A DNA stretch of 64,000 nucleotides. Source: an uncultured Anaerolineae bacterium (lineage in GTDB: Bacteria; Chloroflexota; Anaerolineae; Fen-1058). The position numbers were made by a program, and so were the translations under genes. The stretch is taken from positions 4,031-68,030 of the forward strand of contig CAYNML010000025.1 in NCBI GenBank assembly GCA_964398185.1. The letters are read 5' to 3'. Below, piece after piece: positions 4,899 to 36,233 of this stretch (position 1 is the first letter of the stretch; every line of letters starts with the position of its first letter). The notes beneath the pieces were generated by a model that saw nothing but the letters and a program-made list of their open reading frames with translations, had not been told where the DNA came from and searched no databases.

Positions 4899-4931
4899 AA
4901 CCTCCCGGAGACTTAAAGCCTCCGGGAGGTT
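4899..4931. repeat. REP-like GC-rich palindrome AACCTCCCGGAG-(8 nt)-CTCCGGGAGGTT
   Basis: A 12-bp imperfect stem-loop between the two degV genes. The same CCTCCCGGAG core palindrome recurs at 33111-33141. Confidence 0.5.
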
Positions 4932-5825: not shown

Positions 5826-8399
5826 ATGACTTTCAAAAACCCGGCGTTTGACAAACTCTATAAAATACTCAAGCTCGAAGCCGGTACCGGTTATCGCGAC
5901 AAGGCCATGATCGGCGGTCTGTCACAATTTGCCGCGCGCTGGCAGCAAGAAGCGGGCGACGGCGAAGACGTGCAGCACATCGCCGACATTCTGCGCACCT
6001 ACAGCCAACTCAACCCGGTCGATCCGCGCCGCATGGCGATCACACAGATCGTACAATTGATGGGGATGCCCGTCAGCGGCGTCAAGCCCAGCACGGCGCC
6101 GATCGAGCCGCCCGCCGAACCGCAGCTCGAGCCGGCCGCTGTCGTGGCCGTCGAACCGCCGCCCGCTCAATCGGGTGCGCCGTCCCCCTCGATCGAATCC
6201 GCGCCGCCCCCGCGGCCCAGCGTCGCCAGCGAACCGCCTCCGCCACCCGCGGCGCCGATCGCCGAACAGAAACCGATCGAGAAGCCGAAGCCCAGGCCGC
6301 TGCCCGAAGCGCGGGACGAACAGGGCAACCGGATCGGACTGGCATCTCCGGTGACGGTCATCAGCGGCATCGGTCCGGCCATCGCCGAAAAACTGGAACG
6401 ACTGGGCGTGAAGACCATTCGCGATCTGCTGTATTTCTTCCCGCGCCGCTACGACGATTACAGCAACCTGCGCCCCATCAACCGCCTGCAGTACGGCGAT
6501 GAAGTGACCATCATGGGCACGGTGTGGGACGCGGGTGACAAGCGCGTGCGCGGCGGCGCGTCGATCTTTCAAGCCATCATCAGCGATGGCTCCGGAACGA
6601 TCCAGTGTACGTGGTTCAATCCATACATCGGCAATCAGATCAAGCGCGGCGTGCAGATCGTGGTCAGCGGCAAAGTCACCGAGTTCAACGGGCGCTTGAC
6701 TTTCTCTTCGCCCGAATTTGAATTGCTGGACAACGAGCTGCTCAACACGGCCCGCATCGTGCCGGTGTATCCGCTGACTGAAGGCTTGTCCAATCGCGCG
6801 CTGCGCAAGTTCACGCGCCGCACCGTCGATTACTGGTCGCCGCGCATCGAGGACAGCCTGCCGGACAGTGTGCGCCACTCGGCCGGCTTGATGAGTCTGC
6901 CCACCGCACTGGCGCAGATCCACTTTCCAGATTCGATCCCGGCGCTGGAAACAGCGCAGCGCCGCCTCGCCTTTGACGAGTTGTTCCTGCTGCAATTGGG
7001 CCTGCTGAAACAGAAGGCGCAGTGGCGCAGCGCGAACGGTCGGGCGCTGTTGGTCGATCGGGCGGCGTTGGACGCGTTCATCAGATCGCTGCCCTACCCG
7101 TTGACCGAGGCGCAGCGCCGCGTCATCGAGGACATTCTCGGCGACATCGGCACACCGCACCCGATGAGCCGCCTGGTGCAGGGCGATGTGGGCTCGGGCA
7201 AGACGGTGGTCGCCGCGGCGGCGATGTTCCTCGCCGCGCAGTCGGGCGCGCAAGCCGCCATCATGGCCCCCACAGAGATTCTGGCCGAGCAGCACTACAA
7301 GAATCTGAGCACGTTATGCGATCAGGTCAATGCGCAGGGCGTGCCGCGCCCGCTGACCGTGCGCTTGCTGACCGGCAGCACTGCGCCAGTCGAGCGGGAA
7401 ATGATCGTGGCCGAAATCGCCGACGGGCGCGCGAACATCATCGTGGGCACGCATGCGCTGATTCAAGAGACGGTGTCGTTCAACGATCTGGCGCTGGCCG
7501 TCGTCGACGAACAGCATCGTTTCGGCGTCGCGCAGCGCGGCGCGCTGCGCCAGAAGGGCCGCAACCCGCATGTGCTGGTGATGACGGCCACACCCATCCC
7601 GCGCACGCTGGCGCTGACGCTCTACGGCGATCTCGATCTCTCGGTGATCGATCAGATGCCGCCGGGCCGCCAACCCATCGAGACGCGCATCGTGCTGCCC
7701 GCCGAGCGCGAGCGCGCCTACTCGTTCGTGCGCGCGCAGATCGAGAAGGGGCGGCAGGCGTTCATTATCTGCCCGCTGGTCGAAGAGTCCGACAAGATCG
7801 AAGCGAAGGCCGCCGTGGAAGAACACGCGCGCCTGCAGAAGCACGTCTTCCCGCAGTTCAAGTTGGGCCTGCTGCACGGCCGCATGAAAGCCGACGACAA
7901 AGACGCCGCCATGCGCGCCTTCGCCAACAACGAGACGCAGATTCTGGTCTCAACGTCCGTCGTGGAAGTGGGCATCGATGTCCCGAACGCGACCATCATC
8001 ATGATCGAGGGCGCGGAACGTTTCGGGTTATCGCAGCTGCATCAGTTCCGCGGGCGCGTGGGACGCGGCGCGCATAAGTCGTTCTGCCTGCTGCTGACCG
8101 AATTGAGCGCCGCCGATCTCACCGAGCGCCTGAAGGCGGTGGAAGCCAGCACCGATGGGTTTGTGCTGGCCGAGAAGGATTTGCAGCTGCGCGGGCCGGG
8201 GCAGTTCTTCGGGACACGGCAGAGCGGCCTGCCCGATCTGCACATGACCAATGTCACCGACGCGCGCCTGATCGATCTGGCGCGGCGCGAGGCGGAGAAG
8301 TTGCTGAACAATGACCCAGAGTTAAGCTCAGAAGAAGATCAACCCCTGGCACAGCGCCTGAAGGAGTTCTGGGCAAGCGGCGCAGGAGACTTGAGCTAG
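5826..8399 (+). CDS. recG: ATP-dependent DNA helicase RecG with a ~170-aa N-terminal extension and Pro-rich linker
   Basis: Helicase motifs GDVGSGKT, DEQHRFGV, TATPIPRTL, HQFRGRVGRG and a wedge-domain region are present. The N-terminal ~80-aa domain plus a ~100-aa P/A/E-rich linker are extra. Confidence 0.9.
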   Translation: MTFKNPAFDKLYKILKLEAGTGYRDKAMIGGLSQFAARWQQEAGDGEDVQHIADILRTYSQLNPVDPRRMAITQIVQLMGMPVSGVKPSTAPIEPPAEPQLEPAAVVAVEPPPAQSGAPSPSIESAPPPRPSVASEPPPPPAAPIAEQKPIEKPKPRPLPEARDEQGNRIGLASPVTVISGIGPAIAEKLERLGVKTIRDLLYFFPRRYDDYSNLRPINRLQYGDEVTIMGTVWDAGDKRVRGGASIFQAIISDGSGTIQCTWFNPYIGNQIKRGVQIVVSGKVTEFNGRLTFSSPEFELLDNELLNTARIVPVYPLTEGLSNRALRKFTRRTVDYWSPRIEDSLPDSVRHSAGLMSLPTALAQIHFPDSIPALETAQRRLAFDELFLLQLGLLKQKAQWRSANGRALLVDRAALDAFIRSLPYPLTEAQRRVIEDILGDIGTPHPMSRLVQGDVGSGKTVVAAAAMFLAAQSGAQAAIMAPTEILAEQHYKNLSTLCDQVNAQGVPRPLTVRLLTGSTAPVEREMIVAEIADGRANIIVGTHALIQETVSFNDLALAVVDEQHRFGVAQRGALRQKGRNPHVLVMTATPIPRTLALTLYGDLDLSVIDQMPPGRQPIETRIVLPAERERAYSFVRAQIEKGRQAFIICPLVEESDKIEAKAAVEEHARLQKHVFPQFKLGLLHGRMKADDKDAAMRAFANNETQILVSTSVVEVGIDVPNATIIMIEGAERFGLSQLHQFRGRVGRGAHKSFCLLLTELSAADLTERLKAVEASTDGFVLAEKDLQLRGPGQFFGTRQSGLPDLHMTNVTDARLIDLARREAEKLLNNDPELSSEEDQPLAQRLKEFWASGAGDLS

Positions 8400-22899: not shown

Positions 22900-23065
22900 C
22901 GCCCGCGTAAATTAGCCGAACGGCGCGCACCATCTACAACTGGACGCAAACAAAAACTCGCAAATCTCCCAACTCAACAAGAGCCGGAAGTGTGATATAC
23001 CTAGGCTGGACACTGGTCGATCCAGCCAATTGCTCAGTGTATCTTCCCAATCAGACACCACACCC

Positions 23066-32579: not shown

Positions 32580-32930
32580 ATGCCGCGTAAGTTGCGCATC
32601 TTTTTCGCCGGGCTGAAGTTCGCCATCCAGCACGATCGCAGCGTGGCGCTGCAGATGATCGTCTCGCTGATCGTGCTGGCGATCAGCTTCGGGCTGCGCG
32701 AGTGGTTCGATTTTGTGTTCATCCTGGTGATCACGGGCTACATGCTGATCACCGAGATTTTCAACAGCGCCATCGAGGCGATCTGCGACTACGTGCAGCC
32801 GGAGCACGATCCGCGCATTGGCGCGATCAAGGATGTGGCCGCGGCGGCGGTAGGCCTCAGCGTGCTCATCTGGGTTGGCGCGCTGCTGTTTGAGGTTGTT
32901 CGGATCGTCACGCTTCTGCAGGGTAATTGA
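32580..32930 (+). CDS. dgkA: Diacylglycerol kinase (prokaryotic DgkA family)
   Basis: 116-aa three-TM protein with ...NSAIEAICD...IKD..AAAV typical of DgkA. Confidence 0.7.
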   Translation: MPRKLRIFFAGLKFAIQHDRSVALQMIVSLIVLAISFGLREWFDFVFILVITGYMLITEIFNSAIEAICDYVQPEHDPRIGAIKDVAAAAVGLSVLIWVGALLFEVVRIVTLLQGN

Positions 32931-32955
32931 CACGCCCTTGCCCGCCTGTTATAAT
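32927..32955 (+). promoter_or_regulatory. Perfect consensus sigma70 promoter TTGACA-17-TATAAT
   Basis: TTGACA at 32927-32932 (overlapping the dgkA stop) and TATAAT at 32950-32955 with an exact 17-bp spacer. Confidence 0.6.
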
Positions 32956-32964
32956 GCTGCCATC

Positions 32965-33048
32965 ATGAACGCGAATCTGGTTGCAATCCATCATCATCAC
33001 GCGCACACCCACCACCAGATGGGCTTTCGACGTTTGGGTCGCGGCTGA
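32965..33048 (+). CDS. His-rich leader peptide MNANLVAIHHHHAHTHHQMGFRRLGRG (candidate his-attenuator leader)
   Basis: 27-codon ORF with 7 His codons among codons 9-17. It starts ~10 nt downstream of the -10 box (leaderless or near-leaderless), ends 26 nt before an intrinsic terminator and precedes hisS. Confidence 0.55.
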   Translation: MNANLVAIHHHHAHTHHQMGFRRLGRG

Positions 33049-33073
33049 GTTAACAAGCAGCACACTGAAGTGA

Positions 33074-33102
33074 AGCGTGATCCGGACGGGTCACGCTTTT
33101 TT
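33074..33102 (+). terminator. Rho-independent terminator (attenuator) AGCGUGAUCCGGACGGGUCACGCU + UUUUUUGUUU
   Basis: GC stem-loop followed by a U-run, located between the leader peptide and hisS. Confidence 0.7.
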
Positions 33103-33110
33103 GTTTGATC

Positions 33111-33141
33111 ACCCTCCCGGAGGCTGGGAGCCTCCGGGAGG
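33111..33141. repeat. REP-like palindrome CCCTCCCGGAGGCT-GGG-AGCCTCCGGGAGGG
   Basis: Perfect 14-bp stem in the hisS 5'UTR, 10 nt upstream of RBS AAGGAG. Second copy of the family seen at 4899-4931. Confidence 0.55.
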
Positions 33142-33160
33142 GTATAGAACAAGGAGCAGC

Positions 33161-34432
33161 ATGAAACCGACGATTCGGCCCATCAAGGGCACACGCGATT
33201 TTTATCCGGAAGAGATGGCGTTCCGCACCTGGCTGTACGGGCAGATGAAGGCCGTGTCACAGAAGTTCGGCTATCAGGAATACGAAGCACCCATCCTTGA
33301 ATCGCTGGAGTTGTATGCGGCCAAGAGCGGCGAGGAATTAGTGAAGGAGCAGTCGTTCGTCTTCGCCGATCGCGGCGGCGACACGGTGACGCTGCGCCCC
33401 GAGCTCACGCCCAGCCTCGCGCGTATGGTGGCGCAGAAACAACGCGAACTGCCCAAGCCCATCCGCTGGTGGTCGTTCGGGCCGTTCTGGCGTTACGAGC
33501 GTCCGCAAAAAGGCCGCACGCGCGAGTTCTTCCAGTGGAACATCGATCTGATTGGCGTCAATTCGGCTTACGCCGATGCGGAGCTGGCGGCCGTGGGCGT
33601 GGAGTTCTTCAAGTCCGTCGGCTTGTCCGCGCAGCAGATCGTGATCAAGGTGAACAACCGCAAGTTGATGGAGGAGCAAATCGCGCGGCTGGGTGTGCCG
33701 CCCGATCGGATCGAGGGCATTTACCGGCTGATCGACAAACTCGACAAGCTGCCCGCCGAAAAGTGGCGCGCCTACGGTATCGACGACATCGGTCTGAGCG
33801 CCGAGCAGATCGATCGCTTGAGCGCACTGTTGAACAACAAGGAGTTGTGGAAGGAGTCGGCCGATCTGACGGCGTTCTTCGCCGCAATCGACGATCTGGG
33901 CGTGAGCGAGTACGTGGAATACGATCCGGCGATCATTCGCGGGCTGGCGTACTACACCGGGCTGGTCTTTGAAGCGCGCGATCGCACCGGCGAGTTCCGC
34001 GCCATCCTGGGCGGTGGACGCTACGACAACCTCGTCGGCGATGTGGGCGGCGATCCGCTGGGCGGCATCGGCTTTGCGATGGGCGACGTGGTCATCGGGT
34101 TGGTGCTGGAAAAGTTTGGCTTGAAGCCCAAGCTGCGCCCCACCCCAGCCGACGTGCTCGTGACGATTTTCGATGCCGCGCTGGCGCGATCGGCGGCCAG
34201 GGTTGCCGCGCTGCTCCGATCGGGCGGCGTGAAAACCGAGTTGTATCCCGATGCGGCCAAGCTCGACAAGCAGATGAAGTACGCCAACGCGCAAGCGATC
34301 CCGATCGCCGTCATCATCGGACCGGACGAGGCCGCGCAGGGTCAAGCCACCGTGCGCGATTTGCGCTCGGGCCAGCAGCAGGTCGTCGCGCAAGATCGGA
34401 TCGTGGCAGCGGTGCAAAAAGCGCTGGAATAA
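33161..34432 (+). CDS. hisS: Histidine--tRNA ligase
   Basis: Class II aaRS motifs (IKGTRDFYPEEM, TLRPELTPSLARMV, GGGRYDNL) and a C-terminal anticodon-binding domain. RBS AAGGAG before ATG 33161. Confidence 0.9.
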   Translation: MKPTIRPIKGTRDFYPEEMAFRTWLYGQMKAVSQKFGYQEYEAPILESLELYAAKSGEELVKEQSFVFADRGGDTVTLRPELTPSLARMVAQKQRELPKPIRWWSFGPFWRYERPQKGRTREFFQWNIDLIGVNSAYADAELAAVGVEFFKSVGLSAQQIVIKVNNRKLMEEQIARLGVPPDRIEGIYRLIDKLDKLPAEKWRAYGIDDIGLSAEQIDRLSALLNNKELWKESADLTAFFAAIDDLGVSEYVEYDPAIIRGLAYYTGLVFEARDRTGEFRAILGGGRYDNLVGDVGGDPLGGIGFAMGDVVIGLVLEKFGLKPKLRPTPADVLVTIFDAALARSAARVAALLRSGGVKTELYPDAAKLDKQMKYANAQAIPIAVIIGPDEAAQGQATVRDLRSGQQQVVAQDRIVAAVQKALE

Positions 34433-34479
34433 CCTTGTTATCCCTTCGCGCCCGTGGTAAAATTGCGGGCGCTTCACAT

Positions 34480-34552
34480 GGTGCCTGTAGCTCAATGGCA
34501 GAGTACTGGACTGTGGATCCAGGCGTTGCGGGTTCGACCCCCGTCAGGCACC
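34480..34552 (+). tRNA. tRNA-His (anticodon GTG) with encoded G-1
   Basis: Acceptor GTGCCTG/CAGGCAC with an extra 5' G, anticodon stem CTGGA/TCCAG with loop CTGTGGA, T-arm GGGTTCGACCCCC. Immediately downstream of hisS. Confidence 0.8.
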
Positions 34553-34566
34553 CTTAACAATGAACA

Positions 34567-35150: not shown

Positions 35151-35178
35151 TCGTTGGTTGTTGGTTGTTGGTTGTTAG
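35151..35178. repeat. Heptamer tandem repeat (TNGTTGG)x3 + TTGTTAG
   Basis: tcgttgg ttgttgg ttgttgg ttgttag directly after the bcp stop codon. Confidence 0.6.
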
Positions 35179-35225: not shown

Positions 35226-36233
35226 ATGCCGGGCTGTGTTAAACTTCTTGTCGCCATGAACTACGACATCGTCGCAACCTTGGGGCCAAGCAGCCATATG
35301 CCCGATATCTGGCAAAGCATGTTGGATGCCGGCGCAACCGCCTTTCGCCTGAACACGTCGCATCTCACCTTGACCCAACTGGAGCAGTGGCTCGATCAGT
35401 TGACGCCGTTCCTTTCGGCGCTAAATCCCATACCGTTGTTAGCGCTCGATCTGCAAGGCAGCAAGTGGCGGCTGGGCGATTTTGCGCCGCGCCTTCTCGA
35501 ACCCGGCCAACCGATCGAATTGGTGCACGCCCCCACGTCCGATCGAATCAACACCCTGCCCGTGCCCCACGCCGACTTCTTTCGCGCTGCGCCACTGTCC
35601 AACGACGAGATCGTCCTGAATGACGCCAGGATCAAACTCGTGCGCGAAGCGATCGAGCCGGAGAAGGTGCGCGCCCGCGTCATCGTCGGCGGCGAGATTA
35701 CGGCGCGCAAAGGCATCACGTTTGCGGCGTCAGAGTATCGGCAGGAAGAATTGAGCGAGAAAGATCGCGCCATTTTTGAGGCGACGCGCCATGTGCCCTT
35801 TGTGCGTTACGCCATCTCGTACATCCGCGACGCAATTGAGATGAGCAAATATCACGCGCACTTTGGCGCAGCGTATCTCATCGCCAAGCTGGAACGGCAA
35901 CCGGCGATGGAGGATGCCCGGCAAATTGCCGAGATCGCCGACGAGGTGTGGATCTGCCGCGGTGATCTGGGCGCGGAAATCGGCTTGCGATCGATGGCGG
36001 AAGCCGTGCGGCGCTTCTCTCACTCGATCGGCGATCTATCGATCCCGGTGTTGCTGGCCGGGCAAGTGCTGGAGCACATGGTTGAGCACGCCGCCCCGAC
36101 TCGCTCAGAAGTGTGCTATCTGCACGATGCGTTGCAGGCCGGCTATCGCGGTTTTGTGCTGTCGGACGAGGCCGCTATCGGCCGCTATCCGATTGAGAGT
36201 TGCCGCATGGCAGCCATGTTTCGAGACATCTAA
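35226..36233 (+). CDS. Pyruvate kinase-like protein lacking the C-terminal allosteric domain
   Basis: PK A/B-domain motifs: IVATLGPSS, LNTSH, LDLQGSKWRLG, IAKLERQ, WICRGDLGAEIG, VLEHMVEHAAPTRSEV. It ends where the PK A-domain ends. The start could be ATG 35226 or 35256. Confidence 0.5.
   Translation: MPGCVKLLVAMNYDIVATLGPSSHMPDIWQSMLDAGATAFRLNTSHLTLTQLEQWLDQLTPFLSALNPIPLLALDLQGSKWRLGDFAPRLLEPGQPIELVHAPTSDRINTLPVPHADFFRAAPLSNDEIVLNDARIKLVREAIEPEKVRARVIVGGEITARKGITFAASEYRQEELSEKDRAIFEATRHVPFVRYAISYIRDAIEMSKYHAHFGAAYLIAKLERQPAMEDARQIAEIADEVWICRGDLGAEIGLRSMAEAVRRFSHSIGDLSIPVLLAGQVLEHMVEHAAPTRSEVCYLHDALQAGYRGFVLSDEAAIGRYPIESCRMAAMFRDI

Follow-up and report, generated by a model that had tools for sequence, protein, structure and literature searches.

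The gene for histidyl-tRNA synthetase (hisS) in a stretch of DNA from an uncultured Anaerolineae bacterium (GenBank assembly GCA_964398185.1, contig CAYNML010000025.1, positions 4,031 to 68,030 of the forward strand) is preceded by a short leader that, judging from its sequence and from that of its relatives, is very probably a ribosome-mediated, His-tRNA-responsive transcription attenuator of hisS. This whole stretch of 64,000 nucleotides, numbered from its first letter, is referred to below as the window. In mechanism, the leader most likely follows the classical hisL pattern of amino-acid attenuation, with one unusual trait, the probable leaderless translation of its leader open-reading frame (ORF). 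The elements of the leader and the gene behind it are as follows.

32927..32932, + strand: -35 hexamer TTGACA (sequence and consensus scan), with TTGACA kept in the closest relatives
32947..32955, + strand: extended -10 box TGtTATAAT, with the TG present and TATAAT at 32950-32955
32965..33048, + strand: leader ORF of 27 codons plus stop, encoding MNANLVAIHHHHAHTHHQMGFRRLGRG (ATG at 32965, TGA at 33046-33048; no Shine-Dalgarno sequence)
32979..32990, + strand: segment N (putative segment 1), GGTTGC-A-ATCCA, which can pair with 33035-33046 and is weak in the window
32989..33015, + strand: putative regulatory His codon cluster, three CAT and four CAC making up 7/9 codons (sequence)
33008..33023, + strand: hairpin P, the last His codons (CCCA) with TGGG; 4 bp in the window and 5-8 bp in most relatives; a candidate pause hairpin
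33032..33046, + strand: segment C (segment 2, the antiterminator 5′ strand), GTTTGGGTCGCGGCT, which runs over the final five sense codons into the T of TGA
33072..33087, + strand: segment D (segment 3), terminator 5′ arm GAAGCGTGATCC plus the loop GGAC, of which 33076-87 pairs with C (folds)
33088..33106, + strand: segment E (segment 4), terminator 3′ arm GGGTCACGCTTT plus the T-tract TTTTTTGTTT (folds, family support)
33161..34432, + strand: hisS, histidine--tRNA ligase, 423 aa, the putatively regulated gene (profile matches)

The first-pass annotation of this stretch had described an exact TTGACA-17-TATAAT promoter in front of the leader, and a consensus scan bore this out at 12 of 12 positions, with the extended -10 in addition. 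Between 28000 and 38000 this was the sole 12/12 site, the four other promoter-like sites matching at 9/12. The 27-codon ORF with seven His in nine consecutive codons, described at the same time, can be read directly at 32965-33048, and a search of the 64-kb window in six frames turned up no further nine-codon stretch with at least seven His. Other His-rich nine-codon stretches, at 23053 (+) and 48886 (-), were rejected as non-coding or antisense frames of larger genes. The sequence elements, the alternative pairings open to them, and their conservation and covariation were all observed directly.

Behind the ORF, an intrinsic terminator is formed by a stem of 12 pairs (33072-33083 with 33088-33099) and the loop GGAC, with an energy of -18.4 kcal/mol, followed by TTTTTTGTTT. 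The canonical terminator annotated earlier (33074-33102) thus stands, with its distance from the stop codon corrected from 26 nt to 23-25 nt, depending on the choice of stem start. Folding of the leader, which had been proposed as a check for mutually exclusive pairings, revealed just such a pair: in the minimum-free-energy fold of 32962-33110, GUUUGGGUCGCG (33032-43) pairs with CGUGAUCCGGAC (33076-87) over 12 bp, and the centroid fold is the terminator. At -18.8 versus -18.4 kcal/mol, the antiterminator duplex and the terminator are nearly iso-energetic. When a ribosome was masked onto the last His codon, with the terminator 3′ arm not yet made, the antiterminator formed and occupied 9 of the 12 nt of the terminator 5′ arm; when the ribosome was masked onto the stop codon, the terminator formed in full (12/12). 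This switch between the C:D pairing and the terminator, as predicted, indicates that the geometry needed by the attenuation model is present in the modelled folds of the window. Counted from the end of the stop codon, segment C occupies -17 to -1 in the window; in all 28 leaders of the family described below it lies no more than 24 nt from the stop. A terminator of -14 to -26 kcal/mol is likewise present in 28/28 leaders.

From this anatomy we infer the start site, leaderless translation, ribosome stalling and the response to His, and with them a mechanism that would run as follows. Transcription would start ~7 nt after the extended -10, placing the AUG at the 5′ end of the RNA or within 3 nt of it, and the RNA would be translated as a leaderless mRNA. 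With His-tRNA-His plentiful, the ribosome would pass the seven His codons, reach the UGA and cover segment C (33032-46); with C covered, the terminator D:E (33072-33099 plus the U-tract) would form, and most transcripts would stop before hisS. With charged tRNA-His scarce, the ribosome would stall at 32989-33015 and segment C would stay free to pair with 33076-87, the terminator 5′ arm and loop, so that no terminator would form and RNA polymerase would read into hisS. In most relatives, hairpin P and a pairing between the N-terminal codons and C would sequester C as long as the RNA is untranslated, and may also make the polymerase pause. The purpose of such a switch would be to match HisRS production to the supply of charged tRNA-His.

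The gene behind the leader, whose ATG at 33161 comes one base after the end of the region first annotated, is by its profile matches a bona fide hisS, as its product has the HisRS core and anticodon-binding domains and scores 369 bits against the NCBIfam equivalog TIGR00442 (cut-off 287), while failing the hisZ cut-off. With the HisRS protein as query, we collected 160 hisS loci, of which 80 came from species-representative genomes and 80 from metagenomes; the taxonomically labelled loci are almost all from metagenome-assembled genomes of Anaerolineae or other Chloroflexota, and the metagenome contigs are unlabelled. In the nearest loci HisRS is 88-91% identical to that of the window, and an extended -10, a short His-rich ORF and a strong terminator were found before hisS in the closest loci as well as in several down to ~57% identity. 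A covariance model of the leader (R1), built from 22 leaders, matched 29 of the 160 loci, in each case directly upstream of hisS and on the same strand, and matched the window once, at 32965-33104 with 101 bits. Seven of the matches lie outside the training set (L013, L014, L025, L049, L100, L110 and L112). The search of related genomes advised by the first-pass annotation thus found the promoter, His-rich ORF and terminator conserved together in 29/160 Anaerolineae hisS loci, with covariation in the terminator and in hairpin P. A model match in L047 (minus strand, 6349-6471, 20 bits) was discarded as a false positive, as it falls where an ordinary protein gene begins. That protein gene starts 10 nt after a TATAAT box and is itself probably leaderless. 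The dgkA-like gene that lies upstream of the leader in the window was found beside hisS in none of the 160 related loci, and since the upstream neighbour is not conserved, the comparison indicates that the leader belongs to hisS and travels with it rather than with the upstream gene.

Two structures of the leader, the terminator and hairpin P, were supported by covariation. In a MAFFT alignment of the 22 leaders, 90% of the cells of these two structures were paired, compared to at most 49% with a slid partner, and 41 double-change cells were counted versus 15.7 in shuffles, none of 500 of which reached 41. A 27-sequence model alignment, which is fitted to the structure and so biased towards it, gave 89% paired cells and 57 versus 21.8 double-change cells. 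The terminator alone was recovered by RNAalifold. Hairpin P shows compensatory changes at five of its six pairs, with arms that differ widely across lineages: GCCCAC/GTGGGC, ACCCAC/GTGGGT, GCGCAC/GTGCGC, CTCATC/GATGAG, ACCATC/GATGGT, ATCATC/GATGAT and GGCGCGCA/TGCGCGCC.

The antiterminator was paired in 85% of cells in the first alignment and in 83% in the second, which was fitted to the terminator and not to the antiterminator, compared to at most 46% with a slid partner. In 28/28 leaders, the terminator 5′ arm finds its best partner no more than 24 nt from the leader stop. Segment C differs by lineage (UUUGGGUCGCG, UUGGGCUGAGCGC, AAGCUCACCCGG, GUAGGCCCAGCCGU) and yet pairs, the partner segment shifting among lineages from UUUGGGUCGCGUCU to UUGGGCUGAGCGCGG, AAGCUCACCCGG, GUAGCCCCACC or GUAGGCCCAGCCGU. 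In each lineage this segment resembles the terminator's own 3′ arm, as expected of two competitors for one strand. This complementarity across lineages appears to be a stronger argument for the antiterminator than column counts. A swap test of own against foreign terminator arms gave -18.7 versus -16.3 kcal/mol; this small difference, due to the conservation of the terminator arm, was not used as evidence.

The leader peptides themselves bear on whether the ORF encodes a product in its own right. The 28 peptides are 18-28 residues long and carry 2-9 His each, and their remaining positions vary freely; His makes up 149 of their 668 residues (22%) versus 2.1% in seven neighbouring proteins. Their C-terminal LGRG, LGRV or GLG corresponds to a nucleotide motif, TTGGGTCGCG or TTGGGCTGA, that is retained though untranslated in five leaders with an earlier stop. 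A variable peptide together with a motif retained untranslated indicates that selection has three targets: the terminator, a stretch of RNA at the stop codon, and the His codons in their frame. Such a pattern is expected of an attenuator but not of a micropeptide gene. Promoter, ORF and terminator do formally make up a complete unit, and His-rich peptides are able to bind Ni, Zn or Co, so that the ORF could in principle be an independent small gene for a functional His-rich (e.g. metal-binding) micropeptide, with hisS expressed by leaky read-through or from another promoter and with no switching by His. We consider this very improbable: beyond its His, the peptide is conserved neither in sequence nor in length (18-28 aa) nor at its C-terminus, where LGRG/LGRV is kept as nucleotides even past the stop codon; the unit is always joined to hisS, with differing upstream neighbours; the scan found no promoter-like site between the terminator and hisS; and the complementarity between the stop region and the terminator 5′ arm is kept across divergent lineages, which a plain small gene does not need.

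The attenuator reading assigns the choice between the hairpins to the ribosome, and alternative hairpins alone are silent on what selects between them. A trans-acting factor might set the switch instead, either uncharged tRNA-His acting in the manner of a T-box or a histidine-binding RNA-binding protein such as HutP, with the ORF being incidental; many aminoacyl-tRNA synthetase genes of Firmicutes are in fact under T-box control (PMC2965389, PMC1262725). In the window, however, the Rfam search at the gathering score found only the tRNA-His, with no T-box or other family, and neither a T-box nor His_leader (RF00514) matched in 32800-33300 even at E ≤ 10, in agreement with the earlier claim that no T-box leader is present. 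Among leader-type families the best score was that of Thr_leader, whose 18.4 bits fall far below the threshold of 55, and no T-box was found in 20 related loci without the leader. The leader, at ~140 nt, has no specifier-loop architecture. Moreover, the His codons invariably share the frame of a start codon that stands 6-10 nt behind the -10 (23/28), nothing else in the ORF is conserved, and the antiterminator strand always lies at the stop codon, a placement that is sensible only if the position of the ribosome matters. Control by such a factor therefore seems highly unlikely.

The high content of His also distinguishes an amino-acid-specific attenuator from less specific devices, such as an attenuator reporting general translation capacity, an effect through Rho or mRNA stability, or a constitutive partial terminator that damps a strong promoter. 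A 12/12 promoter before a housekeeping gene needs damping, the free full-length RNA folds to the terminator in 26/28 leaders, and two distant members of the family carry only two His codons, all of which fit such a device. Against this, nearly all members show a ten-fold enrichment and a clustering of His, a hallmark of amino-acid-specific attenuators, and the antiterminator is conserved, which a constitutive terminator would not call for. On balance, we regard a mechanism that is not specific to His as unlikely.

Several observations weigh against attenuation by a His-stalled ribosome, or against parts of it. The fold of the whole leader (32962-33110) is no more stable than shuffles (z = -0.27), and that of 32962-33080 gave z = +1.45; a value of -4.36 for 32962-33165 was rejected as a measure of leader stability because it stems from the GC-rich hairpin, like a repetitive extragenic palindrome (REP), between the terminator and hisS. 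Whole-leader stability relative to shuffles is uninformative either way. The energy of the antiterminator reached p ≤ 0.05 versus shuffles in only 9 of 28 loci, the window falling just above (13/200), and true covariation in the antiterminator is slight, with 5 double-change cells versus 1.9-2.4 in shuffles, so its conservation could come in part from the conserved terminator and the coding sequence. The first segment is less clear still. A 1:2 pairing of the window, between CGCG..ACCCA (His codons) and UGGGUCGCG, was rejected as a conserved element, being paired at 63% in the family with no covariation, and the pairing between segments N and C is no better than shuffles in the window (-14.6 kcal/mol) and weak in the column-wise count (61% paired), in part since the register differs from lineage to lineage. 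At the start of the leader, the distance of 9 nt between the -10 and the start codon makes a 3-nt leader equally as likely as a strictly leaderless mRNA, and in three relatives 35-63 nt are inserted between the -10 and the start codon. Finally, most Anaerolineales hisS loci, at 55-60% identity, are without the element, and the leader is thus not essential to the control of hisS in the class.

For the first segment, what the His codons pair with across the family lies immediately downstream, in hairpin P. The N:C pairing beats shuffles at p ≤ 0.05 in 14 of 28 leaders, with a median z of -1.7, and the leaders of many relatives show complementarity between the stop-codon region and the codons that precede the His run. 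Among these is a conserved codon for Gln (CAG-A), which faces the TCTG of GTCTGA and is missing from the window; it is leader codon 4 (or 8) in L082, L002, L084, L004, L005, L085-L089, L096 and L008. On untranslated RNA, N:C encloses hairpin P and leaves the terminator free to form, suggesting that N:C may be a lineage-variable anti-antiterminator. The ribosome-stalling attenuator proposed by the first-pass annotation is supported in its antiterminator fold and its conserved His-run ORF, with a 1:2 pairing that is weak and variable among lineages.

The prediction that the leader is translated as a leaderless mRNA comes from the spacing between promoter and ORF. The ATG at 32965 lies 9 nt past the -10, and assuming a transcription start ~7 nt after the -10, the leader mRNA is predicted to be leaderless or to have a 5′ untranslated region (UTR) of at most 3 nt (0-3 nt in the window). 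The same arrangement, a start codon 6-10 nt after the -10 and no Shine-Dalgarno sequence, was found in 23 of 28 homologous leaders, and a -10 box of the TGnTAnAAT type is kept in 27 of 28 (TGTTATACT in L025), L002 not being scored. Elsewhere in the window, an extended -10 is followed by a start codon 8-12 nt on at three long ORFs (35256, 56025 and 57583, all +), which makes leaderless expression plausible in this organism, where leaderless mRNAs may be common. The ORF at 35256 (+) is a pyruvate-kinase-like gene, and the TTG start assigned to it mechanically, at 35154, probably lies too far upstream.

Some relatives differ in this spacing. A 25-27-nt small-hairpin module, ATCCCACCAGAAGATGGGGATTATTCC, stands between the -10 and the leader start in two tandem copies in L001 (~640-700) and in one copy in L084, and such an insert would give an otherwise leaderless leader a structured 5′ UTR. 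In L002, 38 nt without the ATCCCACCAGAAGATGGGGATTATTCC motif are inserted at this place, and in one small clade of leaders 31 nt separate the -10 from the start codon. At the upstream side of the window's promoter, the TAA stop of the dgkA-like gene (32928-30) overlaps the -35 hexamer, and as no terminator lies between this gene and the leader, read-through from dgkA would enter the leader.

Among known systems, the leader most resembles hisL (His_leader, RF00514) of Enterobacteria and other Proteobacteria, with which it has in common a run of His codons within a short ORF, alternative hairpins for antitermination and termination, an intrinsic terminator ahead of the regulated gene and, presumably, a read-out of charged tRNA-His. 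It differs in giving no match to RF00514 (E ≤ 10) and in preceding a synthetase gene rather than a biosynthetic operon. Further differences are that its ORF is predicted to be leaderless, whereas hisL has a Shine-Dalgarno sequence, that it occurs in Chloroflexota, and that its 1:2 pairing is weak or lineage-variable. Synthetase genes with a known or predicted attenuator include pheST of gamma-proteobacteria and, in Streptomyces, trpS and leuS (PMC1262725). The leaders of E. coli pheST (the pheM leader) and Streptomyces trpS/leuS follow the logic proposed here, in which a synthetase gene is controlled by stalling at codons for its own amino acid, but they concern other amino acids and other phyla, share no homology with it and are not described as leaderless.

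In bacilli, a His leader peptide has been predicted before a hisS paralogue (hisS*) and hisZ, the main hisS having a T-box (Naville & Gautheret 2010, PMC2965389). The likeness lies in a short ORF with His codons and a premature terminator before a gene of the hisS family, whereas here a bona fide hisS with an adjacent tRNA-His is involved in an unrelated lineage, and the comparison is one of architecture and not of sequence. The T-box of Firmicutes hisS acts on the same gene, in answer to the same signal (tRNA-His charging) and by transcription antitermination, but the window's leader has no T-box sequence or structure, and sensing would be by the ribosome rather than by direct binding of tRNA. 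His-leader attenuators of his operons have lately been proposed for some Firmicutes as well (PMC9413887). For the leaderless ORF, the closest parallel is found in mycobacteria, where leaderless polycysteine short ORFs are Cys-responsive attenuators (bioRxiv 10.1101/834739). Here too the regulatory ORF would be at the 5′ end of the transcript, with consecutive codons of the sensed amino acid; the amino acid, phylum and targets are different, a canonical terminator and antiterminator are evident here, and the leaderless status is a prediction only.

No leader-peptide attenuator in Chloroflexota was found described in the searchable literature, in which the coverage of surveys of synthetase attenuators is incomplete. 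If correct, the present reading would add Chloroflexota, and a bona fide hisS, to the range of leader-peptide attenuation, which has been described mainly in Proteobacteria, Actinobacteria and a few Firmicutes. This would not change the concept, as each single feature has precedent, and the leader is not a new principle but a clean, conserved and uncatalogued example, an RNA element outside the coverage of Rfam and missed by genome annotation. Its ~30 natural variants offer a compact, conserved test case for a leaderless short ORF that would drive the choice between terminator and antiterminator. For the largely uncultured Anaerolineae, it provides a concrete candidate cis-regulatory signal, with the possibility of reading histidine limitation in situ from metatranscriptomes. 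More tentatively, and with some doubt on our part, Anaerolineae may have evolved a family of leaderless-leader attenuators independently of Proteobacteria and Firmicutes, in which a 70S ribosome would load on the 5′-terminal AUG on its emergence from the polymerase and couple translation to transcription with no need of a Shine-Dalgarno sequence. The hisS element would then be the first recognised of a wider Chloroflexota set and part of a conserved 'charging module' made up of an attenuated hisS and a separately promoted tRNA-His.

Four further features lie between the terminator and the end of the tRNA-His gene.

33111..33143, + strand: REP-like GC-rich hairpin, a perfect 15 bp with arms 33111-33125/33129-33143; not specific to the leader
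33151..33156, + strand: hisS Shine-Dalgarno sequence AAGGAG, 4 nt before the ATG and outside the hairpin (sequence)
34435..34463, + strand: tRNA-His own promoter, TTGTTA-17-TGgTAAAAT (consensus scan)
34480..34553, + strand: tRNA-His(GUG), 34481-34553, with a genome-encoded G-1 (34480)

The GC-rich hairpin before hisS had been annotated as REP-like and as a possible second structural layer of the leader. The first part holds, as a near-identical second copy was found at 4899-4931, between two other genes, in the 64 kb of the genome covered; the two palindromes, in different intergenic regions, each consist of CCTCCCGGAGRC, a loop of 3-5 nt and GCCTCCGGGAGG. In relatives, the space between the terminator and hisS likewise holds hairpins, of the form CCCCTCYCC...GGRGAGGGG. 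A role as a second layer that hides the hisS ribosome-binding site was rejected, given that the AAGGAG lies outside the hairpin and that the hairpin recurs elsewhere. The hairpin is most readily understood as a REP-like intergenic element that may stabilise RNA and lies outside the switch.

Both hisS (TIGR00442) and tRNA-His(GUG) (34481-34553) follow the leader in the order first annotated, but the tRNA-His has a conserved promoter of its own and so need not be co-regulated with hisS. An extended -10 (TGnTAnAAT) precedes tRNA-His in 24 of the 26 loci checked, indicating that tRNA-His is probably a separate transcription unit and that co-regulation is unlikely. This -10 ends ~13-18 nt before the tRNA in most loci and 37 nt before it in L003. 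The tRNA-His gene directly follows hisS in most Anaerolineae loci, whether or not the leader is present, and is often followed in turn by tRNA-Arg(TCG).

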